NCBI GenBank assembly: GCA_038065395.1
Contig: JBBTRB010000003.1
Span: 85,800 to 149,799 of the forward strand
Length of the DNA stretch: 64,000 nt
From: Patescibacteria group bacterium
Lineage (GTDB): Bacteria > Patescibacteriota > Minisyncoccia > Phycocordibacterales > PALSA-1337
Reading direction: 5' to 3'
In this document: one piece after another, positions 15,469 to 62,617 of the stretch
Numbering within the stretch: the first letter of the stretch is position 1
Layout: each line of letters opens with the position of its first letter
The notes under the pieces: generated by a model
What the model saw: only the letters and a program-made list of their open reading frames with translations
What the model was told of the DNA's origin: nothing
Database searches by the model: none
Translations under genes and position numbers: made by a program

Positions 15469-15525
15469 TTGCTGACCCTCTTCGCAGGCGCCACGTTCAA
15501 TACTTGTCACCCTCAGTTAATATAT

Positions 15526-30696: not shown

Positions 30697-30944
30697 CTCT
30701 GGTCTTGCCCAACAATGTATTGATCTCTGCGATCAATCCATTCCTTTTGATGAAAATCTCATTACGAGCCGCCTGACTGATGCCTTGTAGAGTCACCTTT
30801 GTGGATTGTATGTGTATAGCCTCTAGAGGTACTTCTATAGAAATGTGTTTTTTTACGACCTCTGCTATGGTCGCATGGATGAAGAAGCTCCCTGCACGTG
30901 CGTTTTGTATCTTCTTGAAGAAGTCTCCGATACTGCGCATAGTG

Positions 30945-32048
30945 TTAGCGGTTCATCGGCATCGCGAGATACATGAAGGTCTGATCCCCTGACACAGGTC
31001 GGATGACCATAGGACGATTCGGCCCACTGATCTGGAACGATACACTGTCAGCGTCGATCGACTGGAAACAATCGGCGATATATTTGCAGTTAAAATTGAT
31101 CTCTACCTTATCCCCTGTCAAAGCCGCATCTATGGTCGTACTGTTCTCACCAATATCACTGTTCTTGGTCTGAATTTCGAGCGTCTTGTTCTTGGGATCA
31201 ACGATCAGTCGTATCTGGTTGAACTTATCAGAAAATATGTTGGATATCTTGAGACTATTGAGGATGTCTTGCTTCAGGAATACCGCTTCGGTAACGAAAG
31301 ATTTTGGGATGATCTGTCGATAATCCGGGAAAACTCCGTCAGTAACGCGAGATACGAGATATATTCCCTTCGACTCGAAAGATATGAGGTTCTTGTTCAT
31401 TCGAACATCTGATGTACCCCCTATCACCTCCAAAGTTCTTACCAAGTCTGAAATATTCTTGAAAGGAACCAGGATATCATTCACATGGAGAGATTGTGGT
31501 GCTTTTATCTTCTTTTCCGCCAAGCGGAATGAGTCTGTGGCCGCAAACACGACGTTTTCCTCGTCTCGGTATATATACACACTCGAAAGTTCTGGTTTTA
31601 CACTCGATACCGAGGCGCTATACCATACCGATCGCAAACCTTTGACGAAAAGCTCTGTAGGCAAAGGAGTCGCATCCTCTGTTACCCGAGGAATACTCGG
31701 AAAATCCTCAGAAGGAACGGTTTTGATGGTGCATTTTGATTTTGCAGATGTTACGAGCATGTTTCCTGATACAAGCTCGAGAGTCACTGTAGGGTTCTGG
31801 TCAGGAAGCTGAGAAATGAAAGCTGAGATAACCTGAGCTGGTATAGCGACCACCCCTTCCCCTTCTACCTTGGCAGGAATAGTGACTTCGATACCAATGT
31901 CGAGGTTGGTTGCCCGTAGAACAACTTCGCCTTTCTTGGCCTCAAAAAGGATACAAGAAAGAACGGGTAGAGTTGCATGCTTGCCAGAAATCTTCTCTAC
32001 TAAGGAAATCGATTCTTTGAGTTTCTTTGTTTGAGTTTCTATTTTCAT
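30945..32048 (-). CDS. dnaN: DNA polymerase III subunit beta
   Basis: 367 aa with the three-domain clamp; MKIETQTKKLKESISLVEKISGKHATLPVLSCILFEAKKGEVVLRATNLDIGIEV. Confidence 0.85.
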   Translation of the reverse strand: MKIETQTKKLKESISLVEKISGKHATLPVLSCILFEAKKGEVVLRATNLDIGIEVTIPAKVEGEGVVAIPAQVISAFISQLPDQNPTVTLELVSGNMLVTSAKSKCTIKTVPSEDFPSIPRVTEDATPLPTELFVKGLRSVWYSASVSSVKPELSSVYIYRDEENVVFAATDSFRLAEKKIKAPQSLHVNDILVPFKNISDLVRTLEVIGGTSDVRMNKNLISFESKGIYLVSRVTDGVFPDYRQIIPKSFVTEAVFLKQDILNSLKISNIFSDKFNQIRLIVDPKNKTLEIQTKNSDIGENSTTIDAALTGDKVEINFNCKYIADCFQSIDADSVSFQISGPNRPMVIRPVSGDQTFMYLAMPMNR

Positions 32049-32286
32049 AAGTATTCTTTATATTAAACAAAACTTTTCGTTATTAGGGATGTGGAAAAGT
32101 GGATAACGTGATAAAAAGGCTCAACGGTAAGGTCAAATGAGAAGATCTATTCTGGGTATAACCTGAAGATCTTCGGGTGGTGTGTGAGTAGGTTCTCATG
32201 GTGGTGAAGTTATACTATTCTTATTCCTGATTTGTTCCGTACTTATTATCGACTTTTCCTTGAGATAACCACAGGTTAATCCACAG
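32049..32286. promoter_or_regulatory. putative oriC segment: DnaA-box cluster in the dnaA-dnaN gap
   Basis: tgtggaaaa, agtggataa, ataaccaca and taatccaca (each 1-2 mismatches from TTATCCACA/TGTGGATAA), plus the AT-rich stretch tctttatattaaacaaaac. Confidence 0.5.
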
Positions 32287-33618
32287 TTATATCATCGACC
32301 GGATCTGTGTGACCTCCTGAGTCAGGACACTGTCGGACTTGAGTTCTTCTTTGACCTTCTCGTAGGAGTGGATGACGGTAGTATGGTCTCTTCCTCCGAG
32401 TTTCTCCCCTATTGAAGGGAAAGATATGCCAAAGTCTTCTCGGAGGATATACATGACCATTTGTCGTGGGCGTACGATCTCTTTGCGGCGAGTCTTGTCG
32501 TATATGCTTTGTTCGTCGATATTGTAGAAATCAGACACGATCTTGACGACTTCCTTCACCGAGACCATCTTTTTTGGTCGAGTGTTGTTCTTGAGGATGT
32601 TCTTGATCTCATTGAGGTTGAGCTCTTTGTTCTTGAGCTGTGTCTGGCAGGCCACGATGTTCACTACTCCCTCTATCTCACGGATATTGTCCTGGATCGA
32701 AGAAGCGAGGAACTCCATGAGCTCCAAAGGAAGGGTTATGTTGTGTGTGGCGCATTTGGTACGGACGATGGCCATACGAGACTCTTGGTCTGGTTCGGGG
32801 ATATCGACCGACATGCCGGCATTGAAACGGCTACGAACACGCTCCTCGAGGCCAGGAATGACGTTGGGGTGTTTGTCAGATGAGAAGATGAGCTGTCTCC
32901 CTGAGTCTTTGAAGGTATTGAATAGGTGGAAGAATTCTTCTTGGAATTTCTCTTTGCTCGAGAAGAACTGCACGTCGTCCATGATGACTACGTCGTATTT
33001 GCGATATTTCTCCTTGAAAGCCTGAGCCTTGCCTTCTTGGAGGGCACTGAGGAACTCGGAACCAAATCGTTCTGAAGTGAGGTAGTAGATCTTCTTGTTC
33101 GGGAATGCAGTCTTGATCTGATTGCCGATGGCTTGGATAAGGTGTGTTTTGCCACGACCAGGACCTCCATATATGAGGAGTGGGTTGTACATCTGGCCGG
33201 GACTCTTGATGACGGTCTGAGAGGCGGCATGAGCGAGCTCATTGAATGGTCCAACAATGAAATTTTCGAAGGTATAGCGAGGGTTGAGGTTGTTCTCCTT
33301 GTCGATATAGAAATCCTGCAGTGGCATGGCCATCGTCGGCATCATGACGGGCTTCTTGCCACGAGAAGAGTCGCCTTTTGAGCCGGATTCTTTCTCGATA
33401 ACATACTCGAGAGCTCTTACCTGTTCATTTGTCTGGCGCAAAATACGCAAAATCGAGTTGTGGAACTTCTTGACCAGCCATTCTTGAGTGAAAGAGTTAG
33501 GAACTCCGAGATATACTACCCCCTCTTCTTCTTTGATGATGCGAGTTTCTTTGAACCACGTGGAGAAGTTAGCCTGCGAAACAGCAGTTTCTATTTCTAC
33601 GAGAGCAGTCTGCCACAT
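32287..33618 (-). CDS. dnaA: chromosomal replication initiator protein DnaA
   Basis: GGPGRGKTHLIQAIGN Walker A, the DnaA signature and a C-terminal HTH; start taken at MWQTALVEIE. Confidence 0.9.
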   Translation of the reverse strand: MWQTALVEIETAVSQANFSTWFKETRIIKEEEGVVYLGVPNSFTQEWLVKKFHNSILRILRQTNEQVRALEYVIEKESGSKGDSSRGKKPVMMPTMAMPLQDFYIDKENNLNPRYTFENFIVGPFNELAHAASQTVIKSPGQMYNPLLIYGGPGRGKTHLIQAIGNQIKTAFPNKKIYYLTSERFGSEFLSALQEGKAQAFKEKYRKYDVVIMDDVQFFSSKEKFQEEFFHLFNTFKDSGRQLIFSSDKHPNVIPGLEERVRSRFNAGMSVDIPEPDQESRMAIVRTKCATHNITLPLELMEFLASSIQDNIREIEGVVNIVACQTQLKNKELNLNEIKNILKNNTRPKKMVSVKEVVKIVSDFYNIDEQSIYDKTRRKEIVRPRQMVMYILREDFGISFPSIGEKLGGRDHTTVIHSYEKVKEELKSDSVLTQEVTQIRSMI

Positions 33619-33747
33619 TTTGGAGTAGTCATGCATAAAATAGGTGCTATAAGTATATACCTGTTTATAGTTCTGCAAACTTGTGGAGGACGTAAAGTTA
33701 TGTTGATAAGTTGGGGACACGAAGTTTTGTTGTTTATTATGTCATTC

Positions 33748-33916
33748 GCGCCGGCGCAGGAGGCGTGTTGTCTCAACCCACGATCGACTTTGCTCACAAG
33801 AACTGAACTGTTCGCAAAGTCGTCTTTTCTCGGCGACGTCTAAGGTAGTCATTATTATCCTTGTGGACACGTCGCCTGCGAAGAGGGTTTCGTCAACACG
33901 CCTCCTGCGCCGGCGC
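33748..33916. repeat. three-stem structured element, copy A (23-bp perfect terminal inverted repeats GCGCCGGCGCAGGAGGCGTGTTG)
   Basis: Outer stem 33748-33770 with 33894-33916. The inner hairpins GACTTTGC...GCAAAGTC and GGCGACGT...ACGTCGCC are homologous to copy B at 49657-49808. Confidence 0.6.
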
Positions 33917-33951
33917 TTGCCTTTTTAGCAAAATAATGTAATATTCTACAC

Positions 33952-34086
33952 ATGTCAGTCACGTATCAACCAAAGAAACGCAAGCGCGCAAAGACACACG
34001 GCTTCCGTGTGCGCATGAAGACCACCTCAGGTCGCAAGGCTATTGCTCGCCGTCGTGCGAAAGGTCGCAAGCGCCTCGCTGTATAA
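33952..34086 (+). CDS. rpmH: 50S ribosomal protein L34
   Basis: Manual translation [44 protein letters not shown] (44 aa); below the ORF-track size cutoff. Confidence 0.8.
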
Positions 34087-34089
34087 GGC

Positions 34090-34425
34090 ATGCTTCCACG
34101 CTCACACAAACTTTCGGCTCACGATGTTGTGTATATTATGGAAAAGGGACGAGTAGCACACTCTCCCCTTTTTACGTTACGGTGGGTACCTGCCGAAGGT
34201 CATACTCGTATCTCGGCGATCGTCCCCAAGAAAACCGCCAAGATGGCTGTCGGACGCACTGGTCTCCGACGCAAGATATATCATGCTCTACGAGAGCTCT
34301 ATCCACGGATCGTCTCTGGCTTCAAGATCGCTGTTCTTGCGAAAACATCAGCGACAGATCTTACTCAAGAAGAAATCGCTCGTGGTATTACCGAGGCTTT
34401 CTCCAAAGCCAGACTCATAGCTTAG
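34090..34425 (+). CDS. rnpA: ribonuclease P protein component
   Basis: 111 aa, basic, directly after rpmH (conserved rpmH-rnpA-yidC order). Confidence 0.8.
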   Translation: MLPRSHKLSAHDVVYIMEKGRVAHSPLFTLRWVPAEGHTRISAIVPKKTAKMAVGRTGLRRKIYHALRELYPRIVSGFKIAVLAKTSATDLTQEEIARGITEAFSKARLIA

Positions 34426-34474
34426 GCTAACCCACTATCTTCACCTGCTTCGATAGTGTATATTTATCTTCTAT

Positions 34475-35233
34475 ATGTACCACGAACTCATCTTTCGCCC
34501 CCTCTACAACGGCCTGATCGGCATCATGGATATCCTTCCATTTGTTGATATCGGCATAGCCGTTATCATATTTACAGTTGTGGTGAAGGTCATCCTCTTC
34601 CCTCTTTCCAAATCCTCGATCCTCACCCAGATCCGCATGAAGGAAGTTGAACCTGAGATGAACAAGATCAAAGCCGAATACGCCAAAGATCGTCAGCTCC
34701 AAGCCATGAAGGTCATGGAACTCTACAAGACAAAGGGTATCCGTCCATTCGCAGGCATTCTTCTCCTTTTCATACAGCTCCCCTTCCTCTTTGCCCTCAT
34801 CTCAGTCTTTTACAAGATCATACCTACAGTGAACCCAGATTTCCTCTATAGCTTCATCTCTGCGCCAGACATCTCGACACGAATATACTTCTTGGGACTG
34901 ATCGATCTCTCTCAGAAGAGCTTCATCCTCGCGCTCCTGACAGGAGTATTGCAGTTCCTCCAGATCCACTATTCCCCTGCGATGCGTCAGAGCAAAAAGG
35001 CTGTGGTTGTTCCAGGAACCGAGAATGATTTCTCCACACAACTCGCTGGCTCTATGCAAAAGCAGATGAAGTTCATGCTCCCTATCATCGCATTCGCCTC
35101 TACCTACTGGCTGATCCCGATGAGTTTCCCTCAGGCGGCCGCGATCATCGCTATATATTGGTCTACAAGTACCGTTTTCACTCTGGCACAAGAGATCTAT
35201 ATTCGCAGACAGTATGAGAAGAAGAGGGTTTAG
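34475..35233 (+). CDS. yidC: membrane protein insertase YidC (short, Gram-positive-like)
   Basis: Five-TM core with KVMELYKTKGIRPFAGILLLFIQLPFLFALI; 252 aa. Confidence 0.85.
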   Translation: MYHELIFRPLYNGLIGIMDILPFVDIGIAVIIFTVVVKVILFPLSKSSILTQIRMKEVEPEMNKIKAEYAKDRQLQAMKVMELYKTKGIRPFAGILLLFIQLPFLFALISVFYKIIPTVNPDFLYSFISAPDISTRIYFLGLIDLSQKSFILALLTGVLQFLQIHYSPAMRQSKKAVVVPGTENDFSTQLAGSMQKQMKFMLPIIAFASTYWLIPMSFPQAAAIIAIYWSTSTVFTLAQEIYIRRQYEKKRV

Positions 35234-35258
35234 GGTGTCTGTGTCATTCCTGCTTCTC

Positions 35259-35446
35259 TTGTCATCCCCGCGAAAGCGGGGATCCAGAGGCAAGGGCGTG
35301 GCTACTGACTTATATCTATATCATCACAAACTATTAGGGACCATCCCTGTAATTGCATGCCGAACCTGTCACGTTCAGCGAAGATATAGATTAATCGGAC
35401 TATATACTGGAAGTGATCCTGGATCCCCGCTTTCGCGGGGATGACA
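35259..35446. mobile_element. MITE-like element: hairpin TIRs around a 125-bp ORF-less core
   Basis: tgtcatccccgcgaaagcggggatccagagg ... atcctggatccccgctttcgcggggatgaca; the core is about 78% identical to the reverse complement of the 62618-62804 core. Confidence 0.6.
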
Positions 35447-35451
35447 CAGTA

Positions 35452-36747
35452 CTAATTACTGGACACCAGATCCAACGACCACAATGATAGGTCGTTTTTG
35501 TTCATGAAGAAAAGGAAGTCGTCACGTTCGTCGAGTTGAAGATTGAAAGAGTTGATGATTCGATCTGCCTTGTCAGAGAGCGAAGTCACAAGACGCACCT
35601 CACCTGTCGTTGCATTCACATCCCATATTTTGTCACTGGTTGATACAGTCCCCTTGTACCAGTCATCTGGATACGAAGCGTCGGGGAAAGATGTAGGAAC
35701 CCCACAATAGACGATGTGTTTGTAGAAATTACCCCAGACACATTTCTCGGCAAGCGTTTTGATACCTGGATCGAGGGTCTTTTCGGTACTGACAGTGTAG
35801 AGTGCCGAAGAGATCATTCCTGCCTGGTCGGTGAATGAAGCGAAGACCTGTTTTGCATCATGACTAGTACGAGTGGTAAGACCGACGGTTGGGCCGAGGA
35901 CTTTCTTCCATATACCGGTCTTTGGATTGACGAAATAGAGGAAGCCGCTTTGTTGAGAAGATGCTTTTGTAGTAAGGGTGATGGTGTTCTCTTCTGGCCA
36001 TTCGGCTACGAGCTGTGTCAGAGGTGTGTCGAATATACGTGTGATAGCCGAACCCTGGAATGTAGAGACGTACCCAACTCCCCTACCGTTCTCCTCGATG
36101 AGCATGAATACCTTGTCCTTTCGGGGTGAGGTTGCATACGAGATGATATTCGGAGGGAGTTTTTGACCCTTGAGTTCATACGGAGTTGTGCCAAGAGACT
36201 CTGGTGTCGAGGTGCCAACAGTCTTGGTTCGGATCAGTCCTGCATAAAGAGTTGTTGCTACCTCGGTGGTTTCTTCGAGTACAGAGGCGATGAATGCTGA
36301 CAGGTCTCTGTTCCATAGGCTCGTATAGGTGCGCGGTACAACTGTGTTGGAGAGTACGGAGGTGTCGAGTGTGTCACTGTGAGCTTCGATGACATTGCCA
36401 CGACCACGATCTACCCAGCGTACGAAGGTGGTCCGGGCAGTGGTGCTCGCACCGTACCCACCGACAGGTGTGTCACTCAAGAGTCGTAGGCTTGGAATAA
36501 CGACGACAGGCTGTTGCTGGGTCGAAGTTGCCTGTGAGGTCGGTTCGCCGGTACTCGGTGTCTGGGTCGGCATGTTCCCTGTTGAAGGACGGTTGAGAGG
36601 TTGGAAACCCGTGATACGACCGATCGGGTCAATGGTCTGGGTTACGGAGTTGCTTGTAGGTGCAATGAACCAATACGCAAAACCCGCAAGGATGATTACC
36701 AGGAGAAGTGTTGCTATAAGAAGGATTGTTTTTTTCTTTGATGACAT
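35452..36747 (-). CDS. hypothetical membrane-anchored secreted protein (T4SS operon)
   Basis: 431 aa with an N-terminal transmembrane helix and a Thr/Ser-rich linker. Confidence 0.5.
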   Translation of the reverse strand: MSSKKKTILLIATLLLVIILAGFAYWFIAPTSNSVTQTIDPIGRITGFQPLNRPSTGNMPTQTPSTGEPTSQATSTQQQPVVVIPSLRLLSDTPVGGYGASTTARTTFVRWVDRGRGNVIEAHSDTLDTSVLSNTVVPRTYTSLWNRDLSAFIASVLEETTEVATTLYAGLIRTKTVGTSTPESLGTTPYELKGQKLPPNIISYATSPRKDKVFMLIEENGRGVGYVSTFQGSAITRIFDTPLTQLVAEWPEENTITLTTKASSQQSGFLYFVNPKTGIWKKVLGPTVGLTTRTSHDAKQVFASFTDQAGMISSALYTVSTEKTLDPGIKTLAEKCVWGNFYKHIVYCGVPTSFPDASYPDDWYKGTVSTSDKIWDVNATTGEVRLVTSLSDKADRIINSFNLQLDERDDFLFFMNKNDLSLWSLDLVSSN

Positions 36748-36749
36748 GG

Positions 36750-37967
36750 TTATAACGTTTTTGCTTTTGCGACGAGTGCCCGAGTGGCTTCTACTGCCTC
36801 ATTTGCTTTTTTCATAAGGAAAATCCGTGTTTCTTCATTGGGGTTATTGATTATCCTGTCTGTTCGAATTTTCTGAATACGATCTTCGATGATAGCGTTC
36901 TTCTGTGTTAGGTCTGCCACAAGAGCCTTCTTCGCCGCCTCTGTTTTCAACATACCTGTTTGGTTATCGTATTCAACTTGTATCTGGAATACCATCGATG
37001 CTTCTTGGCCGATAGCAAGTTCTACAAGTTTTCTCTCTTTGTATTTCTCCAGCGCCTGTAGTTGATCGGGATCAGGAGCAAGGTTCTCCAGCTGACTCTT
37101 TTGGACTTCGTATACCTTCTCAACCTCTTGTACGGCTTTTGTCCAGTTAACGTTAAGGAAGCCATCTTTGTAATTGTAAGGACGAGCAGTCACATCTAAG
37201 GCAGTTTTTCCGATAACCAGTTTGCTGTTCGCGGTGTCGCGGCGTATTTCATCACTGAGTGAGTCGATCTCTGCTTCGAGGGTTTCGATTTCTTTTGCAA
37301 GTTCTTCGTCGGATAAGGATGAATTCTTCTTGAGCTCCTCTATTTCAGTAGCGGCACGAACGATGAGTGCTGTACGTTCAGCGTTTTTCTTCTCTGTATC
37401 AGTAAGCATTTTCTGAGTTTCGGCCATATTGGTACGGAAAGCAGAGGCCTCTTTGCTCAATTCACTGAATATTCCTGCTGACACGCTCTCATACCGTATA
37501 CTCAACGGAGGCACCAACGTCGTCGGTATTGCCACCAGTCTCGGGTCTATCGTGCGGAGGATAATATATGAAGTAAGGACGAGGAGTAGTCCGAGTGCAG
37601 CGTTCTTGACCTTCTCGAGGCCGGCACCCTTGCCCTGCCATGAGTCCGTACTCATATATTGGAATCCTCCCCAGACGATCATGAACACTGCCGATACTGC
37701 AGCCAGAGCGATGGCAAGGTTGAAGAGATATTGTACGTAGTATTTGAAGTTGAGTTGCGTCTGGGGTTGACCAGCAGTACTTGCGGTACATGGGTCATCT
37801 GCCTCAGGGTTCTGACTCGGCACACACGGGAGCGGTTCGAGCAATGTATATGTGGGCAGTGGGTTGTTCGCAGGATTGCCGCCAGTATTGCCCCCTACTG
37901 TTGACTGAGCATACACAGAAGTCCCGAGAGACAAGGCGATGATCGTGAGGATAAAGATTTTTTTCAT
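36750..37967 (-). CDS. VirB2/TrbC pilin-like protein with long coiled-coil C-terminal extension
   Basis: Signal peptide followed by two hydrophobic helices (AIALAAVSAVFMIVWGGFQYM and LGLLLVLTSYIIL), then about 250 aa of heptad-rich sequence. Confidence 0.4.
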   Translation of the reverse strand: MKKIFILTIIALSLGTSVYAQSTVGGNTGGNPANNPLPTYTLLEPLPCVPSQNPEADDPCTASTAGQPQTQLNFKYYVQYLFNLAIALAAVSAVFMIVWGGFQYMSTDSWQGKGAGLEKVKNAALGLLLVLTSYIILRTIDPRLVAIPTTLVPPLSIRYESVSAGIFSELSKEASAFRTNMAETQKMLTDTEKKNAERTALIVRAATEIEELKKNSSLSDEELAKEIETLEAEIDSLSDEIRRDTANSKLVIGKTALDVTARPYNYKDGFLNVNWTKAVQEVEKVYEVQKSQLENLAPDPDQLQALEKYKERKLVELAIGQEASMVFQIQVEYDNQTGMLKTEAAKKALVADLTQKNAIIEDRIQKIRTDRIINNPNEETRIFLMKKANEAVEATRALVAKAKTL

Positions 37968-37973
37968 AGGATT

Positions 37974-38999
37974 TTAGAATGAAATAAGGCTTCTCTCGTC
38001 CGGCTTCGAGAAAGAAGCGGTGAACGAAGTCGCTGCTTCCTGGAGGATGTTGAGGTTATGTTTGATCTGGAGTTCGATCGACGAGCGACCTTCTTCTTCG
38101 GGTGCACGGAGGACGATCGACTGGTTCTTCGCCAGATCTTCTCGGAGTGATCCGTTGACTGTCCAGAGGTAAGAGAGGTTCCCTGCCCCTTCGACAGGTT
38201 TGTTGAAACCATACGGTACTGCCAAGATAGAACTCTCACGTTGTCGGCCGAGATTGATATTGCTGCTGGCGGATTTATTGAAAAGAGGTCCATAGAGAGG
38301 GTCATCGATATACAAGAGTAACGATGCTGCCTGTGGAGATACGGATATATACCCTGTTGTTGCGGCACTGTTGTCTCTGGTGCGAGCGGTGACACTGATG
38401 GTATAAGGCCGAGGTACGATACCACCTTCGACTATCACGGAATTCTTGCCATAGCCAGATTGGTCACTGATAGCACGGTCGTTGCGTTGCCATTCGTAGA
38501 TCAGAGTTTTGGGGTCGTATTCGACTCCTGCACTATTGGCAAGATGCGGTATGGCGACGATCTTGACGTTATTTTCGAAGACGGGACTGATCTTGCCCAG
38601 GAAAAGTGGCGGAACATAGCCATCTGACTCGAGGATCAGGTCGACCGATCCAGAGCCGATAGTGATGGACTCTGCGAGCTGTTTGCCACTCGGAGCGATC
38701 ACGACGACACCGACCGCCACCTTTTTGCCCAGTGCTGGGGCGGTGACTTCTACTGTGTCTGCACCGAGTCCACGACGTCTCTCCTTGCCTTCGACGATCC
38801 ATACTACCGTGGATCCGCGGATATCTTCGACATAACTACGTACGGTCACGGTGATGGTCTGACCTGGTACAGGGTTGCTCGAAGACAGGGATAGGTCGAG
38901 TCCCCCTACCGAAGCAGGTACAGTCTGCGCGAACGTGACCGAAGAGAAGAACAGAGAGAAAATACAGACAAAAAAGATATAAAAAGACTTACCTTGCAT
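37974..38999 (-). CDS. hypothetical secreted protein (T4SS operon)
   Basis: 341 aa with a signal peptide. Confidence 0.5.
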   Translation of the reverse strand: MQGKSFYIFFVCIFSLFFSSVTFAQTVPASVGGLDLSLSSSNPVPGQTITVTVRSYVEDIRGSTVVWIVEGKERRRGLGADTVEVTAPALGKKVAVGVVVIAPSGKQLAESITIGSGSVDLILESDGYVPPLFLGKISPVFENNVKIVAIPHLANSAGVEYDPKTLIYEWQRNDRAISDQSGYGKNSVIVEGGIVPRPYTISVTARTRDNSAATTGYISVSPQAASLLLYIDDPLYGPLFNKSASSNINLGRQRESSILAVPYGFNKPVEGAGNLSYLWTVNGSLREDLAKNQSIVLRAPEEEGRSSIELQIKHNLNILQEAATSFTASFSKPDERSLISF

Positions 39000-39020
39000 G
39001 CATATATTGTAGCATAGAGA

Positions 39021-39488
39021 CTACGCAGCTTCTTCGTAATCCTGTGGAGCACGAACTCCGTCACTCACGAGGGGCTGGATGCTAGAGCGACTTGGTGCTG
39101 AGGGTTGAGGTTGGCTCGGTTGACGGACACCACCGGCATTAAAGGTTGGTTGTTTAGTGAATTTGCCATGAGTTGCGTCTTTGAGAGAGATACCTGTTTT
39201 TTCTTGAACCTTGAGAAATGCGAGCAGAATGATCATGCCCACTACGATCGTTGGCAAGGATTGCACGATAGGTAGTATCTCTGCGAGACCAGAAACTACC
39301 ATTGGCGCCAAACGACGGGCATTGAGGAGACCAAAACCTTTGTAATAGAAGTACCACGCTACACAGAACCAAAACGCCGGTCCAACCGCGATACCTACTC
39401 CAGGAATGATGCTCAAGAGGTCTGCTAGAAGCGCCACGAACACGAGTATGATCATGGCCATAATGCCTATCTGTGGAGGATTGTTCAT
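39021..39488 (-). CDS. hypothetical small membrane protein (T4SS operon)
   Basis: 155 aa with three hydrophobic helices and a Pro/Ser-rich tail. Confidence 0.45.
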   Translation of the reverse strand: MNNPPQIGIMAMIILVFVALLADLLSIIPGVGIAVGPAFWFCVAWYFYYKGFGLLNARRLAPMVVSGLAEILPIVQSLPTIVVGMIILLAFLKVQEKTGISLKDATHGKFTKQPTFNAGGVRQPSQPQPSAPSRSSIQPLVSDGVRAPQDYEEAA

Positions 39489-39504
39489 GTGAGGTAGTAT
39501 ACCA

Positions 39505-41316
39505 TTACCCTACCTGCTCCAACTCCTTCTTGGCTTGCTGGATCTGCATGACCTGAGCTGGGTTGGTGGTGATGATCTGGTCTTCGGTGTAGGATGCCAC
39601 GATCTTGATCGCAACGTGCTTGAGGCCGACGAAGAATATACCCTCCCCTACGTCTGACTCGAGCAAGAGATACTTTTCCTCATCGGTGAGGTTGAAGGTC
39701 TTCTGGATACTGTCGATAACTGCTGGGGATTGCTTGAGGAGGATCTGGATCGATGAGTTGGTGACGATCGGTAGGCCATACGGCGAGTTCAGGAAGTCCC
39801 CTACGTCCTGGGTGATTGTCATCAGTCCCAAGAAGTATTTGCGACCTCTTTTTGCCAGACTAAAGAGGAACGAAGCGGTGTCTTCGGATTTCATCATCCA
39901 CCATGCTTCATCGATGACCAGGAGGCGTTTCTTGAGGTTCTTGCGGACAGCGTTCCATATATAGTGCGTGACGATGTACATGGCAACTGGTTTGAGCTCG
40001 TCTTCCATGTCGCGCAGTGAGAACACCACGAACTTTTTGTTGATGTCGACGTTCGAAGGACGGTTGATGAAGCCAGACCAGGTACCTTTTGTGTATTTGC
40101 CGAGACGCTCTACCAGAGAGCTTGCCCCTTCCATGCCGGCAAGTACGAGCTCGAAGTCAGAGAGGAGTGGTGGTTCGACATTGCGGAAGTCGGACTCCGG
40201 TGTGATGTCTTTGAGGGCATATGTCTCGGTGATGGCGCGGTCGATGAGCGCATCTTCTTCCTGGGTGAGACCTCCCAACATGATACGGAAGAGACCGACG
40301 AGGTTGATGGTGTTGGAGCGCAGGATGTCAGCCGCGGACTCGTCTTGCCCAGGGATCGGCAGATCAAAAGGGTTGATATGGTGTTCGGAGTTCAGAGATA
40401 TATTGAAATATTTGCCTCCCGTAGCCTCGGCCATATACTCGTATTCTTTTTCTGGATCAATGACGATGACATCGGTATCGAACATCAGTGTTCGTAGGAT
40501 CTCGAGTTTGGTGCAGTAGGACTTACCTGCACCAGCTACGGCGAACGTCACAGAGTTATAGTTGCCCAGCAAGAATCTGTCAAAAAGCACCAACGAGGAG
40601 TTGTGACGGTTGATACCATAGAGGATGCCTTTGTCTGAGGTCAGGTCAAAAGAGACAAATGGGAAAAGGCTCGAAAGGGGCGAAGAGTTGAGCTTGGAAT
40701 GTACGGCGAGCTGGTCGTCCCCTGTTGGGATCACACTCTTGAACCCTTGCTCTTGTTGGAAGAGAGCTGGTTTGACGTAGATGAGTTTGGATTCGAGGAT
40801 GGACTTGATCTCGGACTCGAGCTTGTCGAGTTCGCCTTCGTTGTCTGCAAAGAGGGTGATGTAGACGCCAACATCGAAGAGGTGTTCTTGCGCTTGCATC
40901 AGTTGGTCGCGGAGCGCCTCGAGATCTTGGTAGGCGGTATCGAGTGCAGGGTCGCGTACGAGTCCTTTGCTCTCTCGGCGAGAGATCTGACTCTGAACCT
41001 CGGCAACTTTCTTTTGGAAATGACGGAGCACCTTGGCGGTATCGATCGGATGTACGAAAATAGAGACGTTGAAGACCTTGTCGAGGTTGATGATCGGGGC
41101 GAACCAGCTCTCATCGAGGAATCGTGGATATGAGATGACGAAGAGTGTTCGACCGACCTTCTCGCCGAGGTTGATGTCTTTGGAGCTGACCTTGAGTGCC
41201 GAAGGAGCGATGACATCCTTGAGCTCGAGCACGCCAGCCTGGTATATCTCCTCGGGCAGGATGGAGACGATCGGACTGGCTTCTTTTTTACCTAATAATT
41301 TTGAAAATATGGACAT
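39505..41316 (-). CDS. VirB4/TrsE/PrgJ-like T4SS ATPase, C-terminal 603-aa ORF
   Basis: Walker A AVAGAGKSY and Walker B LLVIDEAWWM. The Walker A sits only about 260 aa from the N-terminus, so roughly 200 aa of a normal VirB4 N-terminus are missing. Confidence 0.8.
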   Translation of the reverse strand: MSIFSKLLGKKEASPIVSILPEEIYQAGVLELKDVIAPSALKVSSKDINLGEKVGRTLFVISYPRFLDESWFAPIINLDKVFNVSIFVHPIDTAKVLRHFQKKVAEVQSQISRRESKGLVRDPALDTAYQDLEALRDQLMQAQEHLFDVGVYITLFADNEGELDKLESEIKSILESKLIYVKPALFQQEQGFKSVIPTGDDQLAVHSKLNSSPLSSLFPFVSFDLTSDKGILYGINRHNSSLVLFDRFLLGNYNSVTFAVAGAGKSYCTKLEILRTLMFDTDVIVIDPEKEYEYMAEATGGKYFNISLNSEHHINPFDLPIPGQDESAADILRSNTINLVGLFRIMLGGLTQEEDALIDRAITETYALKDITPESDFRNVEPPLLSDFELVLAGMEGASSLVERLGKYTKGTWSGFINRPSNVDINKKFVVFSLRDMEDELKPVAMYIVTHYIWNAVRKNLKKRLLVIDEAWWMMKSEDTASFLFSLAKRGRKYFLGLMTITQDVGDFLNSPYGLPIVTNSSIQILLKQSPAVIDSIQKTFNLTDEEKYLLLESDVGEGIFFVGLKHVAIKIVASYTEDQIITTNPAQVMQIQQAKKELEQVG

Positions 41317-41320
41317 GGGA

Positions 41321-41419
41321 AAGTGTAATTGGAACCTAGTAACTCGTAACTAGAAAAACACACACATGGCTTTTTCTAGTTACAAATTTCTTTTTACGAG
41401 TTACGGTGTTCATGTGATT
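41321..41419. repeat. 99-bp repeat, copy 1 (inside the split VirB4 gene)
   Basis: Character-by-character identical to 42049-42147. Internal inverted half-sites tagtaactcgtaactag / ctagttac...cgagttac; contains stops in the VirB4 frame. Confidence 0.85.
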
Positions 41420-42048
41420 TGTATCGGCTTCTCGGTCTCGCCCGGGTTGAAGATTTTGTAGAATAATTCTACCACTTCTTCGGTTCCGAGTTCTGCACTG
41501 CGGACGCCGCAGCGTACCAGTCCCTGTTCGACTACTGATACTCGCTGTTCGAGCTGACTCCTGTATTCCTGGAATTTGTCATCGAGCGATCCGGCATCCG
41601 CTCCCTTCTTGCCCTTGGGCATCATGTTGGCGAGAGGGTTCTTGCTGGCGGTCATGAGTGGTGGATCGTACGGTATGACCACGAAGAAACTCTTGGACAT
41701 GATGTTGGTGCTCTCGACAAAGGTGCGGATGAACTCGATATATTCTCGGACCTGGATCTTCATGAGCTCAGTGAGCTGCTCTTTGTACTGCCCTTCGAGG
41801 AGGGCAATGTATGGCCTGATATCGAGCTTCTTGGACTGGATACAAATCTGGATCGAGAAATCCAGCGAGTTGAGGAAGTTCTGGAACTGCATCATGATCG
41901 AATTCTGCTCATCAGAAGACTTGAGAGCGAAGTTCAGTGACGATGCCAGGATGATGGCACGCATGCCGCCGTTCTTGAGGATGACCACACCATCGCGGAT
42001 CTCCTGGATCGGTACAAAGTTTTGGGTTGATTGGGGTGCTGTAGGCAT
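41410..42048 (-). CDS. VirB4/TrsE-like N-terminal domain ORF (212 aa)
   Basis: NFVPIQEIRDGVVILKNGGMRAIILASSLNFALKSSDEQNSIMMQFQNFLNS matches the N-terminal domain of Gram-positive VirB4 homologs (TrsE/Orf16/PrgJ-type). It is in the same reading frame as the 603-aa ORF. Confidence 0.55.
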   Translation of the reverse strand: MPTAPQSTQNFVPIQEIRDGVVILKNGGMRAIILASSLNFALKSSDEQNSIMMQFQNFLNSLDFSIQICIQSKKLDIRPYIALLEGQYKEQLTELMKIQVREYIEFIRTFVESTNIMSKSFFVVIPYDPPLMTASKNPLANMMPKGKKGADAGSLDDKFQEYRSQLEQRVSVVEQGLVRCGVRSAELGTEEVVELFYKIFNPGETEKPIQIT

Positions 42049-42147
42049 AAGTGTAATTGGAACCTAGTAACTCGTAACTAGAAAAACACACACATGGCTT
42101 TTTCTAGTTACAAATTTCTTTTTACGAGTTACGGTGTTCATGTGATT
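42049..42147. repeat. 99-bp repeat, copy 2 (between the PrgI-like gene and the VirB4 N-terminal ORF)
   Basis: Identical to 41321-41419. Confidence 0.85.
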
Positions 42148-42580
42148 ACTTCTGGTTACGGTTAGAATACATACTCTCTTTGATATCCAAACTCCAGGTC
42201 ATGTCTTTGAGTTTGCTGTTGGAGATCTTGGGGATCATGACAGACGCATAGGTCTTGGCATCTTTGAGTGCAGTACGCGTGTCGGTTGGTCGTGGCTTGT
42301 CTTCTTTTTTCCAAATATAGAGCTTGGCATTGCTGTAGTATTTGAATGCTGACTCGGCGATGTTTATGAAAGGTCTGTTATGGAGCTTGAAGAAAGCGAG
42401 CGCCGCAGAGATACCGAGGATCACCATGATGGGAATGAGCGAGAGGACAAAACTCTTGAGGAAAACATATACCAGGAATGAAAGGCCTCCCCCACCCGCG
42501 AGATATATGAACTGTTTGAGAGTCAGTGGTCCGAAGATCTTATCTTCGACTTCGATGAATTGAGGAACTTGGAAACGCAT
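42146..42580 (-). CDS. PrgI family protein (VirB3-like, Gram-positive T4SS)
   Basis: 144 aa: MRFQVPQFIEVEDKIFGPLTLKQFIYLAGGGGLSFLVY followed by a second transmembrane helix, as in the PrgI family (PF12666). Confidence 0.5.
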   Translation of the reverse strand: MRFQVPQFIEVEDKIFGPLTLKQFIYLAGGGGLSFLVYVFLKSFVLSLIPIMVILGISAALAFFKLHNRPFINIAESAFKYYSNAKLYIWKKEDKPRPTDTRTALKDAKTYASVMIPKISNSKLKDMTWSLDIKESMYSNRNQK

Positions 42581-42608
42581 CGATAGTATTATACCTCACC
42601 CCCACTCC

Positions 42609-43331
42609 TTATTCTATTGCCTCGCGGTACGGATCTGGTCCCGGGGCAACCTTCGGTGCCGGAGGAGTTGCCTTTGGGGTTTCTTTGGTTGGAGCTCCGA
42701 CTACCTTGACCACTTTCTCCTCGGGGATCGAGGTCGGCTTGTTCATCAAGAGATCAACCAAGGGCTCTGTATGAACATCCACCCTCGCTGGCGCTATCGG
42801 CTGTGGTGTAGGTTCTGGATTCTCGAGCGCATCGAGGAGTGCTTCCCTGTGAGTACTGGTCGCAGTCTCATCAGACATAGTCTTGAGTGACTCCGTCTTC
42901 TCCTCTGCTCCCTCTTTCTGAGGCTCTTCGATGGTGAAGTTACCGATCTTCTCGAGATCAGAGATGGAGGAGGTGTATGTAGGATCAGTGAGATCTTTGT
43001 CTTGTTCGAACTTTTCTTCCAAAGATTGCATGGCAGATTTTATCTTCGAGAATATTTCCTTGTTAACGTCATCCGCAATTTCGGCAGATACACTTTCTCG
43101 GATGTTTGCTTGGTTAGATAAGTTTTTCACAAATTCTTTTGAGGGAATAAGGCCAAGCATCACCAAACCAATGAGATCAACAAGTTCTCCCAGTTGATCG
43201 ATGTGGAGTGAATGCTTATCCCCTATCGCTTGAATGGCAGTGTTTATCTCAGGTGAAGAAATAGCCTCCTGAAGATCTTTTGGAAGTTGCTCGAAGCGTT
43301 CTTGAATTTGTTCGGCGCTAAATTGTTTCAT
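42609..43331 (-). CDS. hypothetical acidic protein (T4SS operon)
   Basis: ORF track 42609-43400; start moved to MKQFSAEQIQ (ATG at 43331) to remove the overlap. Confidence 0.4.
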   Translation of the reverse strand: MKQFSAEQIQERFEQLPKDLQEAISSPEINTAIQAIGDKHSLHIDQLGELVDLIGLVMLGLIPSKEFVKNLSNQANIRESVSAEIADDVNKEIFSKIKSAMQSLEEKFEQDKDLTDPTYTSSISDLEKIGNFTIEEPQKEGAEEKTESLKTMSDETATSTHREALLDALENPEPTPQPIAPARVDVHTEPLVDLLMNKPTSIPEEKVVKVVGAPTKETPKATPPAPKVAPGPDPYREAIE

Positions 43332-43332
43332 A

Positions 43333-45213
43333 TTATTTTTTATCGGATCCAGACTTCTTTTCCTCGTCACCACCCTTCTCTTCCTTGTTACTATCGCCAA
43401 CCTTCTTCACCAGATCATCAAAAGATTCCTTGCTCTTAGCCTCTTCTCCTTCCTTGATTTTGTCTTCCAAATCCTTAATTCCTTTCTTTAGAGTATCAAT
43501 TTTAGCAATACTCTCTATTTTTGGAGGTTTCGGTCTTCCAAAACCTACGGGATTAGAATCACTATCCATTTCCTTTTCAAGGTCTTTCATCTCTCGCTCC
43601 ATATCCGCCTTGAGCTTCTTATTTTTTTCCAAATCGGATTTCGCCTGTTTCTTAGCGGCTTCCTTGTTCAATTTTTCTGCAGTCTCTCTTCCGGCACGTC
43701 CATTCAACATGAAGTTGAGTACCGTATTTTCGTATGGAAGATTCCTTCTGAATTCAGCCTGCATTGCCTTGGCATCTTTCTCGGCCTGGTCAGCACTAGC
43801 CTTATCCGAATATAGACTTCTGTTCACTGTTCCAACCCTCTTGTATAGATCCTCTTGAGCTTTCTTCTGTGCTTTTAGTGTAGCTTCATAACTAGCTTTT
43901 TTGTCACCAAAACCATTGGAACTCAAAGCAGACAGTCCTTTTGAGGCCATAAGTCCCAATCCTGGAACTCTACTAGATAATCCTCTCAAGGCTTCACTTT
44001 CATTGAGTCTATAAGCAGCTCTTCCGACAGTGTTTCTGTTTGTCCATCTTCCCAAACCGCCCCACATCCCTGCTGCACCGATCTTATCTGTATTGATAAA
44101 CTTGAGTATTCCACCACTGATACTGACCGCTGCAACCAATGGGAAGTTGAGGAGAACGATCACGATCACCGCGTTGATGACGAGTGTCATGATACTGGAG
44201 TACCAGGTCGTCGAGTTCGTAGAGGCGGCGCTGGCAAGGTCGACACCAGTCAGGAGCGGTGTTGTGGTCAGGACGCTGAGTGCCAGGTACATCAGGAGTA
44301 GATACACCGGCATGAAGACGAGCATGCCCTTGTAGAGACTGGTCCACTTTTCTGCATACTTCCCTATCTCCGGGACGATATGAGATGCGAACCAGATCGG
44401 TGAGAATGCCAGGAGGAAGATCAACACTACGAAACGAATGACGAATGCTAGTGCCGCCGCGGCGAAACTCAATGCCGCAGTGATCATGATCATGATCGAG
44501 GCGATACCGATCATCATGATCTTGATCGGTGCCGTCCAGGCCCCACCAGCTGCAGCGGTCGAAGCGGCCGGAGTGATACTACCGTTGGTGTTGTAGAGCG
44601 CAGGGATCTTCAAAGACTTCATGAAGATATCAGAGAGTCCCCCGTCATTGGATGACCCTATCGATCTATTAACGAGTCCTGCGGGACTGAGGTTGCCTGC
44701 ATTGAGCGAGTTGGCAGGAGCGATCGCATTGTAGAGTTGGATCGAGACGATGTTGGAGACATCGATACCGAGTCCTGCGAAGAAGAAACTAAAGTTGATG
44801 ACGACACCAGCGATGACAATGTTCTTGATGAGCGTTCCGAACTTGGCATCTTGGAGACCGAGGATCAGTCGTAGTGCCGCATAGAGCAAGGTGAAGATGA
44901 TGAAAAGGCCAGAAATATCACGCAACGCTTTCCAGGTAGTGAAGACTGCCGGTGTCTGTTGCAAGAATGACTTCATCTGCAAGGTCAGGTTGATCGAGTA
45001 GTTGAGCAAGAATCCGGACAATGCCAGTATCCATCCTGCCCCCATCTGGATGAAGTTGATGATCTGGGCCAATATCTCGGCTACGATCATCATCAAGTTA
45101 TCAAAACCAAAAAGGTTGGCCACAATATTTTGTGCATGCGCAACGTGTGTGCCCAAGAGCCATCCTCCGAGGATAGCGAGCGAGATTATGAAGATGTTAC
45201 GGATGTTCCTCAT
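43333..45213 (-). CDS. polytopic membrane protein, VirB6/TrbL/PrgH-like
   Basis: 626 aa with a signal peptide, 8 or more transmembrane helices and a C-terminal charged coiled-coil tail (KKQAKSDLEKNKKLKADMEREMKDLEKE). Confidence 0.5.
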   Translation of the reverse strand: MRNIRNIFIISLAILGGWLLGTHVAHAQNIVANLFGFDNLMMIVAEILAQIINFIQMGAGWILALSGFLLNYSINLTLQMKSFLQQTPAVFTTWKALRDISGLFIIFTLLYAALRLILGLQDAKFGTLIKNIVIAGVVINFSFFFAGLGIDVSNIVSIQLYNAIAPANSLNAGNLSPAGLVNRSIGSSNDGGLSDIFMKSLKIPALYNTNGSITPAASTAAAGGAWTAPIKIMMIGIASIMIMITAALSFAAAALAFVIRFVVLIFLLAFSPIWFASHIVPEIGKYAEKWTSLYKGMLVFMPVYLLLMYLALSVLTTTPLLTGVDLASAASTNSTTWYSSIMTLVINAVIVIVLLNFPLVAAVSISGGILKFINTDKIGAAGMWGGLGRWTNRNTVGRAAYRLNESEALRGLSSRVPGLGLMASKGLSALSSNGFGDKKASYEATLKAQKKAQEDLYKRVGTVNRSLYSDKASADQAEKDAKAMQAEFRRNLPYENTVLNFMLNGRAGRETAEKLNKEAAKKQAKSDLEKNKKLKADMEREMKDLEKEMDSDSNPVGFGRPKPPKIESIAKIDTLKKGIKDLEDKIKEGEEAKSKESFDDLVKKVGDSNKEEKGGDEEKKSGSDKK

Positions 45214-46832
45214 GGGTTTGTAGGCGGCTTGTTACATGCGTTTTGGAATGTGGAGGCTTTTGCAGTGAGGTCTTTATTCTCTTCTTTCACCTTCTTCACA
45301 TCATCAGCCGCCATGGTTACATTCATGCGAGACTTGATGGTGGCAACGAGCTCTGATATGCCCAGATAATTCTGGAGCTGTTGGTCTGGATTGGCCTCGG
45401 TAGTTGTAGCCAGGCCACTTGTTTTGGCGCTATTGAGTTGTTGCATCTGGATCTCTGCGTTGAGTTGCTTGGCAACCATCTCTGTGAAGAGTGGCGTGAA
45501 GTCGGTCGTCAAGAAACTGTCGAGCATAGAGATCTGGCTCTGGAAATAAGGCGCCATAGCGGTATTCTCAGGGAGAGATGACTTGGTCACGAGACAGGTG
45601 CGGGCTGTGTCGAATTTTGATTTCGTCTCAGTGAGGAGGGTGACTGTCTGGTCATAGTTTGCCTTGTATGTTGTTACGACCTTGATACCAGAATCGATAT
45701 CTTTCTCCAGTTGTTTGCGAGCGATCTCCCCTTCTCTCCTCGACTCATTGAGTATACGCGCGGTATATGATCCTTTGCCTCCAGAGTCGTTATCACTGAG
45801 AGTACTCAAGCCTTTTTCGAGAGCAACACTGACCATCTTGCTCACTAGTGCATCGAAGACCGCATTGATACTATCTGCCAGCTCGAGTTCTCGTACAGAA
45901 GAGCCGAGCTGATTGGCAAGAGAATTTTCTATGACAGATCCAGGGGTTTCGGTCTTGCAACTCTGGTAGGTGACACCTCCAGTCTTTTTGTCTACTTTTT
46001 TCTTGAGACTAGTACTTTCTCCATCTTCAGCTTGGCCAGTCTGAGCAGTCTGGTTTCCGAATTGTTTAAATTGCTCACCCTGACTTTCTGAAAGTGCCAT
46101 GTCTCCCGAAGTCACATTCTCTGTCACATCCTTGCATCTATTGAATGAGAGGAAGCCTCTTCCGCGGTTGAGATCCATGTTGACCTCAGAGTGCTTCTTG
46201 GAAATACGTGACAGAAGGTCACTGTGGGCATAGAGGTACGCACCAGAATAGCTATTCTGAGGCTCGGTCGAAAGAGCGACGAAGCTTGCCCAGCCTCCTT
46301 GGGAGAAGTCGCCAGCATTGAATCCGTTGATAGTGATACCGCGTGCAGCTGCATCCTTGGTATTCTGGATGATCTTGCCCAAGGTACAAGTGTACCTTTG
46401 ACTATTACGGGCAGACATTTGCAGGGCAAGAGTCAGACGAATATCAAAACTAAAAGGAGAACATAAGTTCGATAGCGGTCCACCTCCCCCGCCCTCTAGG
46501 AATTCGCCGGTTACTTGGTCGGCCGCATCGAGGAAGAATCCGTTCGGGTTTGTGATGAATGAAGGGCTGCCTTCGAAACCGGTATTGATCCAGTTGATAA
46601 CACTCGTGGTGAGTTGGTGGAGGAGTTGTTTCGCGATCGCCGTAGCCGCTCTGTCCAAGATGAAATCCTTCGCATTACCCATGATGTTATGGAAGTTGAA
46701 GTCCGTACCAATAGGCACATTGAGCCCCTGTGCTTGTGCGGGTAATGGTTTGATCAGGGGTACAAAAACAGCAACAAATAGGCATATGATCAGGATTTTT
46801 CTGTGTAGGTTTTGATTGAGAATAGGCATCAT
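45210..46832 (-). CDS. hypothetical secreted protein (T4SS operon)
   Basis: 540 aa with a signal peptide; overlaps the upstream gene by 4 nt. Confidence 0.5.
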   Translation of the reverse strand: MMPILNQNLHRKILIICLFVAVFVPLIKPLPAQAQGLNVPIGTDFNFHNIMGNAKDFILDRAATAIAKQLLHQLTTSVINWINTGFEGSPSFITNPNGFFLDAADQVTGEFLEGGGGGPLSNLCSPFSFDIRLTLALQMSARNSQRYTCTLGKIIQNTKDAAARGITINGFNAGDFSQGGWASFVALSTEPQNSYSGAYLYAHSDLLSRISKKHSEVNMDLNRGRGFLSFNRCKDVTENVTSGDMALSESQGEQFKQFGNQTAQTGQAEDGESTSLKKKVDKKTGGVTYQSCKTETPGSVIENSLANQLGSSVRELELADSINAVFDALVSKMVSVALEKGLSTLSDNDSGGKGSYTARILNESRREGEIARKQLEKDIDSGIKVVTTYKANYDQTVTLLTETKSKFDTARTCLVTKSSLPENTAMAPYFQSQISMLDSFLTTDFTPLFTEMVAKQLNAEIQMQQLNSAKTSGLATTTEANPDQQLQNYLGISELVATIKSRMNVTMAADDVKKVKEENKDLTAKASTFQNACNKPPTNP

Positions 46833-60104: not shown

Positions 60105-60194
60105 CGTCATCCCCGCGAAGGCGGGGATCTGCGCACAAGAATAGACAAATATTAACAGACTAGGTCATGGATCCCCGCCTTCGCGGGGATGACA
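60105..60194. repeat. bare inverted pair of hairpin repeats (GAAGGC-loop variant) with a 39-bp spacer
   Basis: cgtcatccccgcgaaggcggggatc (60105-60129) and ggatccccgccttcgcggggatgaca (60169-60194). Confidence 0.8.
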
Positions 60195-62570: not shown

Positions 62571-62617
62571 TTCTGTGGCTTAATAAGAGGCTATTAAATG
62601 AAATACAGCATCTATCT

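Follow-up and report, generated by a model that had tools for sequence, protein, structure and literature searches.

A hairpin-bounded, non-coding repeat downstream of yidC in a Patescibacteria genome, a probable non-autonomous unit of the Ssn system

The region downstream of yidC in a groundwater member of the Patescibacteria (candidate phyla radiation, CPR) raises the question of whether a short repeat that carries no gene of its own can be a mobile unit and, if so, to which repeat system it belongs. The DNA analysed, here called the window, is a 64,000-nucleotide stretch (contig JBBTRB010000003.1) that corresponds to positions 576402-640401 of record CAYHKE010000001.1 (assembly GCA_964357315.1). 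An earlier description, here called the sequence-only reading, had reported behind yidC an element resembling a MITE (a miniature transposable element with inverted repeats). This element is designated copy D (35260-35446); copy E is located at 62618-62804, and F and G are further copies outside the window. Copy D is probably a non-autonomous repeat unit of the Ssn system, whose nuclease is SsnA, inserted as a unit between yidC and the convergent last gene of a type IV secretion-like cluster. Confidence in this explanation is only moderate, since D has no target-site duplication and SsnA has no known transposition activity.

Copy D is 187 bp long and is composed of two inverted hairpin ends of 28 nt that enclose a core of 131 bp. 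The left terminal hairpin (35260-35287, plus strand) is TGTCATCCCCGCGAAAGCGGGGATCCAG, an exact match to the 28-nt end pattern and an Ssn-related motif (SRM) that resembles the Neisseria Transformation Sequence (NTS). The right terminal hairpin (35419-35446, minus strand) is a perfect inverted copy of the left one, with 0 mismatches. Each end forms a hairpin with an 8-bp stem (ATCCCCGC/GCGGGGAT) and a GAAA loop. The core (35288-35418, plus strand) is AT-rich and non-coding, and its alignment with the three other copies is gap-free; the first 50 nt or so and about the last 22 nt are kept between copies, the middle being variable. The GC content is 43% in the D core, 64% in the D ends and 48% in the window. 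In the whole window the 28-nt end pattern is found 8 times (0.00 expected) and the hairpin centre, CCCGCNNNNGCGGG, 11 times (0.9 expected).

The element announced by the sequence-only reading is therefore real, with perfect inverted hairpin ends and a gap-free partner at 62618-62804, but several of its dimensions had to be revised. Its end at 35446 holds, whereas the start at 35259 and the length of 188 bp include one extra unpaired T. The terminal repeats, given as 31 bp, are perfect over 28 nt in D and over 30 nt in E. The core of 125 bp follows if ends of 31 nt are assumed; with ends of 28 nt it measures 131 bp.

Copy D begins 26 bp past the stop codon of yidC (34475-35233; PF02096) and ends 5 bp before the 3' end of a convergent gene of 431 codons. 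Six bp outside its left end lies TGTCATTCCTGC (35242-35253, plus strand), a partial copy of the outer hairpin arm that matches at 11 of 12 positions. Fifteen 12-mers as close to the end motif as this one are present window-wide, against 0.55 expected, and 11 of the 15 are within full hairpins, so that a partial copy 6 bp from a full D end is unlikely to be due to chance. The sequence-only reading had noticed this fragment, one position too far to the left (35241-35252), and had taken it as a sign of repeated hits at the site; the fragment is present but does not in itself show repeated hits. Further 12-mers with at most one mismatch to the outer arm are located at 48147-48158, 59112-59123 and 33740-33751 (CGTCATCCCCGC twice and TGTCATTCGCGC once). 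The first two are inside long ORFs (open reading frames) and none of the three is accompanied by the other arm; chance or the decay of half-sites may account for them.

The identity of the hairpin links copy D to a described system. The consensus of the NTS/SRM is CGTCATTCCCGCGMAVGCGGGAATCYRG, with the palindromic core ATTCCC N8 GGGAAT (Chenal et al. 2025, PMC11893778). The ends of E match this consensus at 27 of 28 positions and those of D at 25 of 28; two of the three differences in D (positions 7 and 22) are a compensatory C:G pair in place of T:A, by which the stem is kept. SsnA is a single-domain GIY-YIG protein of about 94 amino acids that binds the motif solely as single-stranded DNA (ssDNA) and cuts a few nucleotides upstream of it, cleavage requiring three nucleotides 5' of the palindrome and binding the C just 3' of it (PMC11893778). 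In copies D to G, all eight ends have GTC 5' of the palindrome and C 3' of it. As a rule the motif is found on either side of an ssnA gene, an architecture that Chenal et al. (2025) noted as insertion-sequence-like, and the SsnA-NTS pair of N. meningitidis reduces transformation by motif-bearing DNA (PMC11893778).

A partner gene of this kind is present in the window. As the sequence-only reading had stated, the hairpins that bound D also bound a GIY-YIG unit, a hairpin-ssnA-hairpin arrangement of 381 bp (15525-15905, minus strand). Its intact ssnA homologue (15527-15838, 103 amino acids), 19.5 kb from D, has the same hairpins on both sides. The protein consists of a single Pfam GIY-YIG domain (PF01541, E=1.3e-17, residues 3-76), and its Y6, Y17 and E64 have the same residue numbers as the positions changed in the N. 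meningitidis SsnA mutants Y6A/Y17A/E64A. Its length and single-domain make-up fit the Ssn nuclease family (cd10448), in which proteins of about 94-105 amino acids carry catalytic Tyr, Tyr and Glu. More than 7,900 homologues were found, the best 120 listed being 65-78% identical and belonging to several phyla, and the nearest solved structure is 1zg2 (UPF0213 protein BH0048, E=0.009). The TGA stop codon (15527-15529) lies within the terminal hairpin (…GGATGACA), as it does in the ssnA unit of a relative (L022:15405 region). Since the stop is supplied by the hairpin, the tail of the protein, …(D)PGSPLSRG, is hairpin-encoded; many database homologues of 103-104 amino acids may have a tail of the same origin. 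The sequence-only reading had overlooked that the hairpin of D is the NTS/SRM motif already in the literature and that the GIY-YIG gene is a homologue of ssnA. Judged by sequence, D is a member of the SRM repeat class.

Copy D is not alone. Copy E (62618-62804, minus strand; 187 bp) has the opposite orientation to D and a T:A stem variant at both ends. Compared with the reverse complement of E, D aligns without gaps, with 146 of 187 identical positions over the whole element (78%), 94 of 131 in the core (72%) and 26 of 28 in each end; the 78% that had been attributed to the core is thus the value of the whole element. Copy F (L019:1351-1537, minus strand; 187 bp), located in a different context on another contig from Hainich, was the one match of a metagenome scan with the left end (subterminal sequence). 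Copy G (L029:14323-14510, that is, CAYHKE010000001.1 573361-573548; 188 bp) lies 3 kb to the left of the window in the same genome and was detected with E=1.3e-29 when the 10 kb beyond each window end was searched with a profile of the core. The alignment of the four copies contains a single 1-nt indel, and the pairwise core identity among D, E and F is 72-80%. An nhmmer search of all the DNA analysed with the core profile matched family copies only. Within a copy the ends are kept (0-2 mismatches), while the cores differ by 20-28%. The proposal of a non-autonomous family with members in opposite orientations is therefore confirmed, with four copies in both orientations and in unrelated contexts.

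Three of these copies (D, E and G) are located within 80.9 kb of one genome, which is the part of the 762-kb genome covered by the same-genome census; by extrapolation, the copy number would be approximately 25-30 per genome. The same sequences are present in the Hainich H41 groundwater assemblies, where short-read contigs of the same population stop inside the element, as a multi-copy repeat would lead one to expect. In a strain variant of copy E on a Hain_H41_02um_R2 contig (L026:12031 region), a G-to-T change in the stem of the right hairpin (GCTGGAAT for GCGGGAAT) breaks one pair, indicating that the ends vary within the population.

Different gene calls overlap these ends. Public annotations place a 41-amino-acid protein over copy E (window 62598-62723; L025:11845-11970) and a 42-amino-acid protein over copy G (L029:14471-14599); these hypothetical proteins are annotation artefacts. 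The sequence-only reading had dismissed two ORFs over D in the same way, and this judgement holds, as none of the frames stays open throughout the copies and codon positions give no signal. The ORF that starts with MPLDPRFRGDDK is antisense as described (34802-35293, minus strand), whereas the one that ends in ...DPGSPLSRG, also given as antisense, is on the plus strand (35214-35444).

Evidence that D is an insertion comes from related genomes. The three closest available relatives (L020, L022 and L023, with YidC proteins 76-77% identical) show the same gene order on both sides of the site: dnaN, dnaA, rpmH/rnpA, yidC, a convergent gene of 432 codons and the secretion-like cluster. The spacing between yidC and the convergent gene is 36 bp in L020, and the two genes overlap by 12 bp in L022 and L023; in the window it is 218 bp, 187 of which are D. 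No hairpin is present at the yidC site in L020, L022 or L023. This comparison of the yidC downstream region, which had been suggested with the first description, thus shows a site without the element in three syntenic relatives, and D is an insertion.

A second orthologous site, between a gene of 157 codons and a TraG-like gene, exists in four states: an ssnA unit in L022 (14980-15500), a solo hairpin in L023 (11736-11763), a decayed solo hairpin in L020 (14858-14885) and nothing but a 16-bp gap in the window (39489-39504). The L023 solo is a symmetric palindrome, TGTCATCCCCGC-TTTC-GCGAGGATGACA. It may have been left by a deletion between the 8-bp direct repeats ATCCCCGC that both ends of the unit contain, or it may be a target whose centre received the unit. 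The L022 ssnA unit carries tandem half-hairpin copies (22-bp repeats) at both ends, a feature of the same type as the partial end copy next to D.

These empty sites bear on a different account, in which the hairpins are static Ssn target sites rather than mobile units. Recombination with incoming DNA, either homologous or mediated by hairpins, would then have built up the pairs of hairpins with their spacer and dispersed them, and the host would use them to restrict or steer transforming ssDNA. SsnA-NTS does lower transformation in N. meningitidis (PMC11893778), the RS families of the Neisseria NIMEs have been dispersed without known transposition (PMC1797815), the copies lack target-site duplications and are old, with a core divergence of 20-28%, and the pilus and secretion genes of the window are consistent with DNA uptake. 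However, the contexts of the four colinear copies of identical length are single-copy and unrelated to one another, and the relatives have a cleanly empty yidC site. Because recombination needs homology at the target, insertion as a unit explains the copies more easily, and at the empty sites there is no hairpin on which recombination could have acted. The static account appears rather unlikely.

The loop and stem variants differ between copies but are alike at both ends of the same copy: GAAA with a C:G pair in D, GAAA with a T:A pair in E, GAAG in F and GCAG in G. The loop positions that vary are exactly those that the published NTS consensus leaves free (M, V), and so the match between ends is not explained by hairpin stability or by protein recognition. 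If the ends were drawn at random from four variants, matches in four of four copies would be expected with a chance of approximately 0.004 (hand arithmetic). Matching loop variants are likewise present in the mini doublet and in the adjacent pair of polA hairpins described below; the ssnA unit is an exception, its ends differing at two positions. Either the two ends pair and are corrected or selected together, or one was copied from the other when the unit was formed.

With respect to the core, the classical sense of a MITE would make it the decayed, internally deleted remnant of ssnA, an origin that would be compatible with D being an inserted Ssn unit. Several features recall the gene. In the four-copy consensus, oriented like the ssnA unit, an ATG is found 10 nt past the left end, and there is an open frame of 48 codons that terminates at the same TGA in the right hairpin and the same ...DPGSPLSRG tail; the first codons, MATYLYLYHHKLLGT, loosely resemble MSYYIYILTNKRNGT (the GIY motif), and the best local DNA alignments of D and of E to the ssnA unit both fall on the region of the start codon. 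However, 46 of 500 dinucleotide shuffles of D and 372 of 500 of E reach the observed alignment score. When all six frames were searched with a profile built from 120 SsnA homologues, none was conspicuous; the consensus peptide received 0.0 bits, a score equalled or exceeded by 114 of 1000 shuffles, Pfam GIY-YIG gave no match at E<=10 and BLASTP of the N-terminal part gave E=1.3. The frame is open in only one of the four copies, and its third codon positions show no enrichment of variable sites. Descent of the core from ssnA is thus unlikely.

As a candidate in its own right the ssnA remnant was set aside, the DNA alignment, profile, peptide, Pfam/NCBIfam and BLASTP tests all being non-significant; the sequence-only reading had itself asked whether the core could be a fragment of a protein-coding gene, and the tests against ssnA gave no significance. 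Coding potential of any other kind was not detected in the core either: no frame is open in all four copies, and the distribution of variable sites by codon position (12/13/19 at best) is unconvincing and disagrees with the one long frame.

The element could also be the gene of a small RNA, whose transcript would be closed by the 28-bp terminal stem, as in the hairpin-bounded WsnRNA46 of Wolbachia or the hairpin-containing FtrB of Francisella. Copy F matches the full Rfam model of WsnRNA46 (RF02625) with 36.5 bits (E=3.6e-06), D matches the FtrB hairpin weakly and, on the sense strand, two core helices are paired in all four copies with several G-U-compatible changes. However, the RF02625 score is far below the gathering score of 65.3, and the alignment consists of the two terminal hairpins alone, the interior being skipped (129 nt against 50 in the model). 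The core consensus folds weakly on both strands (-11.8 and -8.3 kcal/mol), the covariation is unconvincing against controls (31 of 500 shuffles reach the observed value for these four sequences), no promoter-like or terminator-like site is conserved, and the copies occur in either orientation relative to their neighbours. In single-sequence and consensus predictions, on whole elements and cores and on both strands, the end-to-end stem is the sole robust fold. At gathering thresholds, a Rfam scan of the window recovered four tRNAs only, and D had no match to RF02625 at E<=10; promoter and terminator scans of the element found nothing above shuffles. A small-RNA gene is accordingly very unlikely.

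The position of D between convergent genes, shared with E and the ssnA unit, together with the GC-rich hairpins of the ends, would fit a bidirectional terminator or an mRNA stabiliser retained for that role. No T-run follows the hairpins, though, and the terminator scan finds nothing at the ends. The relatives do with a 36-bp gap or with overlapping stop codons, the mini doublet and copy G are located between genes of the same direction, and the same hairpins are found inside polA. This possibility seems extremely remote.

How could an inserted Ssn unit have moved? When the DNA is single-stranded, during replication, DNA uptake or conjugative transfer, each end of D would fold into a hairpin. 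SsnA would bind this hairpin and nick the strand a few nucleotides to its 5' side, just outside the element; given the inverted arrangement of the ends, cleavage of either strand would be confined to the 5' boundary of the element. Such nicks could have one of two outcomes: copies of the unit might be seeded elsewhere in trans, in the manner of REPINs or MITEs, or the unit might become a place where recombination with incoming ssDNA is concentrated or restricted, as is the case for the NTS in Neisseria. The core would act as passenger or spacer, and its conserved subterminal stretches may matter for propagation. Mobilisation by SsnA, which we infer, is the weakest link of the explanation.

Different results weigh against mobilisation of D as an Ssn unit. 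SsnA has been demonstrated as a nuclease that binds and cuts ssDNA, transposition or strand transfer being unreported (PMC11893778), and with one end per strand in cleavable orientation a simple cut-out from one strand is unexplained. No target-site duplication was found, the flanks of D, E, F, G, the ssnA unit and the mini doublet sharing no direct repeat. The cores differ by 20-28%, with no sign of a recent burst, and the same-genome census comprises 80.9 kb of the 762-kb genome. The 19-mer of the right end gave 11 matches in 185,579 species genomes, all of them chance matches in unrelated coding sequence without a hairpin; two scans of viral contigs gave 0 matches, as did the metagenome scan with the right end (copy F differs there by one base). 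A profile of the longest-open antisense frame, searched against a collection of 5.8 billion proteins, returned solely the ORF already present in copy E, the one with the 41-amino-acid product. Within the collections scanned, the core family was found solely in this groundwater population.

Other hairpins of the same type are present in the window. The mini doublet (60105-60194, plus strand; 90 bp), composed of two inverted hairpins with a GAAGG loop in both and a 34-bp spacer, is located between the rpsO and NYN-domain genes, which have the same direction, and represents a second, shorter type of doublet in this genome. Inside polA (18196-20721, minus strand) three Ssn-type hairpins leave the reading frame open. 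Two of them (19615-19642 and 19671-19698, together 19615-19698, minus strand) form an outward-facing pair 28 bp apart, in frame and with a GCAGG loop in both; the third (20284-20311, minus strand) is single and also in frame, and encodes VIPAKAGIRG. The peptides that the hairpins add are VIPAKAGIRG (amino acids 137-146), DPRLRGDDK (342-351) and VIPAQAGIRG (360-369), and the match to the Pfam 5'-3' exonuclease N-terminal domain is divided into two stretches. These hairpins recall the palindromic elements of Rickettsia, which are also in frame. In N. meningitidis, just 2% of the NTS are within genes (Chenal et al. 2025, PMC11893778). At 62868-62921, between convergent genes and 64 bp beyond copy E, there is a further stem-loop (AAAAAACCGCG…GTGTCT…AGACAC…CGCGGTTTTT) that is preceded by an A-run, is followed by a T-run and looks like a bidirectional intrinsic terminator; a simple terminator scan made no call there.

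The genes around D belong to two groups. On one side D adjoins the replication-origin gene set (30900-35250), with dnaN and dnaA on the minus strand and rpmH, rnpA and yidC on the plus strand. The cumulative GC skew has its minimum near 30-32 kb, which places D about 1.5 kb from the likely origin. On the other side, directly after yidC (35452-47700), there is a type IV secretion-like cluster that includes PrgI, TraC-like, TraG-type P-loop ATPase, TrbL-like and pilin-like proteins; the cluster is kept downstream of yidC in this genome and in all three relatives (3/3).

Copy D can be compared with several known systems. The NTS/SRM-SsnA system (PMC11893778) shares with it the end motif, a partner GIY-YIG protein of about 100 amino acids with Y6, Y17 and E64, a motif-flanked gene and many dispersed copies. 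It differs in that the host here is a member of the Patescibacteria, a group absent from the main text of PMC11893778, and cleavage by this SsnA is predicted. The subjects of that article are the single hairpin and the hairpin-ssnA-hairpin unit; the words MITE, NIME and REPIN are absent from its main text, and it is not known to describe hairpin doublets with a conserved core or empty-site evidence.

The dRS3-RS-dRS3 units of the Neisseria NIMEs (Bentley et al. 2007, PMC1797815) are also non-coding and consist of inverted dRS3-type hairpins (ATTCCC N8 GGGAAT) around a spacer; D has the layout of one such unit standing alone. NIMEs contain 20-bp dRS3 inverted repeats, spacers of 50-150 bp that belong to repeat families, GC-rich ends and AT-rich spacers (PMC1797815). 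The same GC 'wave' is found here (57-68% in the ends, 34-43% in the cores), and the 131-bp core is within the range of those spacers. However, the units described here are isolated, whereas NIMEs form long arrays by the surface-protein genes of Neisseria, and the present family is small, length-invariant and outside Neisseria; NIMEs were stated in 2007 to be absent elsewhere (PMC1797815).

Like the REPIN/REP-BIME of Bertels and Rainey (2011, PMC3116915), where an inverted palindrome pair with its spacer is presented as a replicating unit that can fold into one long hairpin, D has a 28-bp terminal stem that dominates every fold. Further likenesses to that account are a single chromosomal gene flanked by the same palindromes and two halves that evolve together. 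In contrast to the REPINs presented there, the partner here is a GIY-YIG nuclease and not a RAYT Y1 (IS200/IS605-type) transposase, and the spacers, which are longer, constitute a sequence family in themselves. No RAYT gene flanked by the palindromes was found, the flanked gene being the GIY-YIG nuclease, in a window for which no exhaustive Y1 transposase scan was made.

RF02625 WsnRNA46 has a GTCATCC...GGATCCAG hairpin, a spacer and an inverted hairpin, and Wolbachia is an SRM-rich genus, but neither its hairpin interior nor its spacer, 50 nt long against 131 nt here, is related, and the score is sub-threshold, D not being a member. With classical MITEs, such as the Correia elements, and with palindrome-associated IS200/IS605 elements, D shares its short length, the lack of an ORF, the multiple copies, terminal inverted repeats common to a coding unit and insertion polymorphism. 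The D family is short and non-coding, with 28-nt perfect inverted ends, four copies and empty sites. It differs from these elements in lacking a target-site duplication, in having ends that each form a hairpin, and in its partner, which is not a known transposase: the ends are common to the ssnA unit, and SsnA is known as an ssDNA nuclease only.

A more far-reaching proposal, possible but doubtful, is that hairpin doublets are replicating units mobilised in trans by a GIY-YIG ssDNA nuclease, REPIN-like but with a nuclease instead of a transposase, and active in tiny CPR genomes. If this were true, the matched loop variants would mean that a fold-back or hairpin intermediate lets one end serve as template for the other as the unit propagates; the solo palindrome and the half-hairpin arrays of the relatives would be footprints of mobilisation, and hairpins would even land in frame inside polA.

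With copy D, a repeat system known from Neisseria and other bacteria gains a new local member. The element extends NIME-like units beyond Neisseria into a reduced CPR genome. In annotation it explains the spurious ORFs of 41-42 amino acids and the 'VIPAKAGI/DPRFRGDD' peptides, and it also accounts for the breaks of short-read contigs at these positions. The Ssn/NTS system was described only in 2025, and the locus provides comparative material on whether its repeats are mobile, in the form of an orthologous empty site for a doublet, a four-state series and doublets with matching loop variants.

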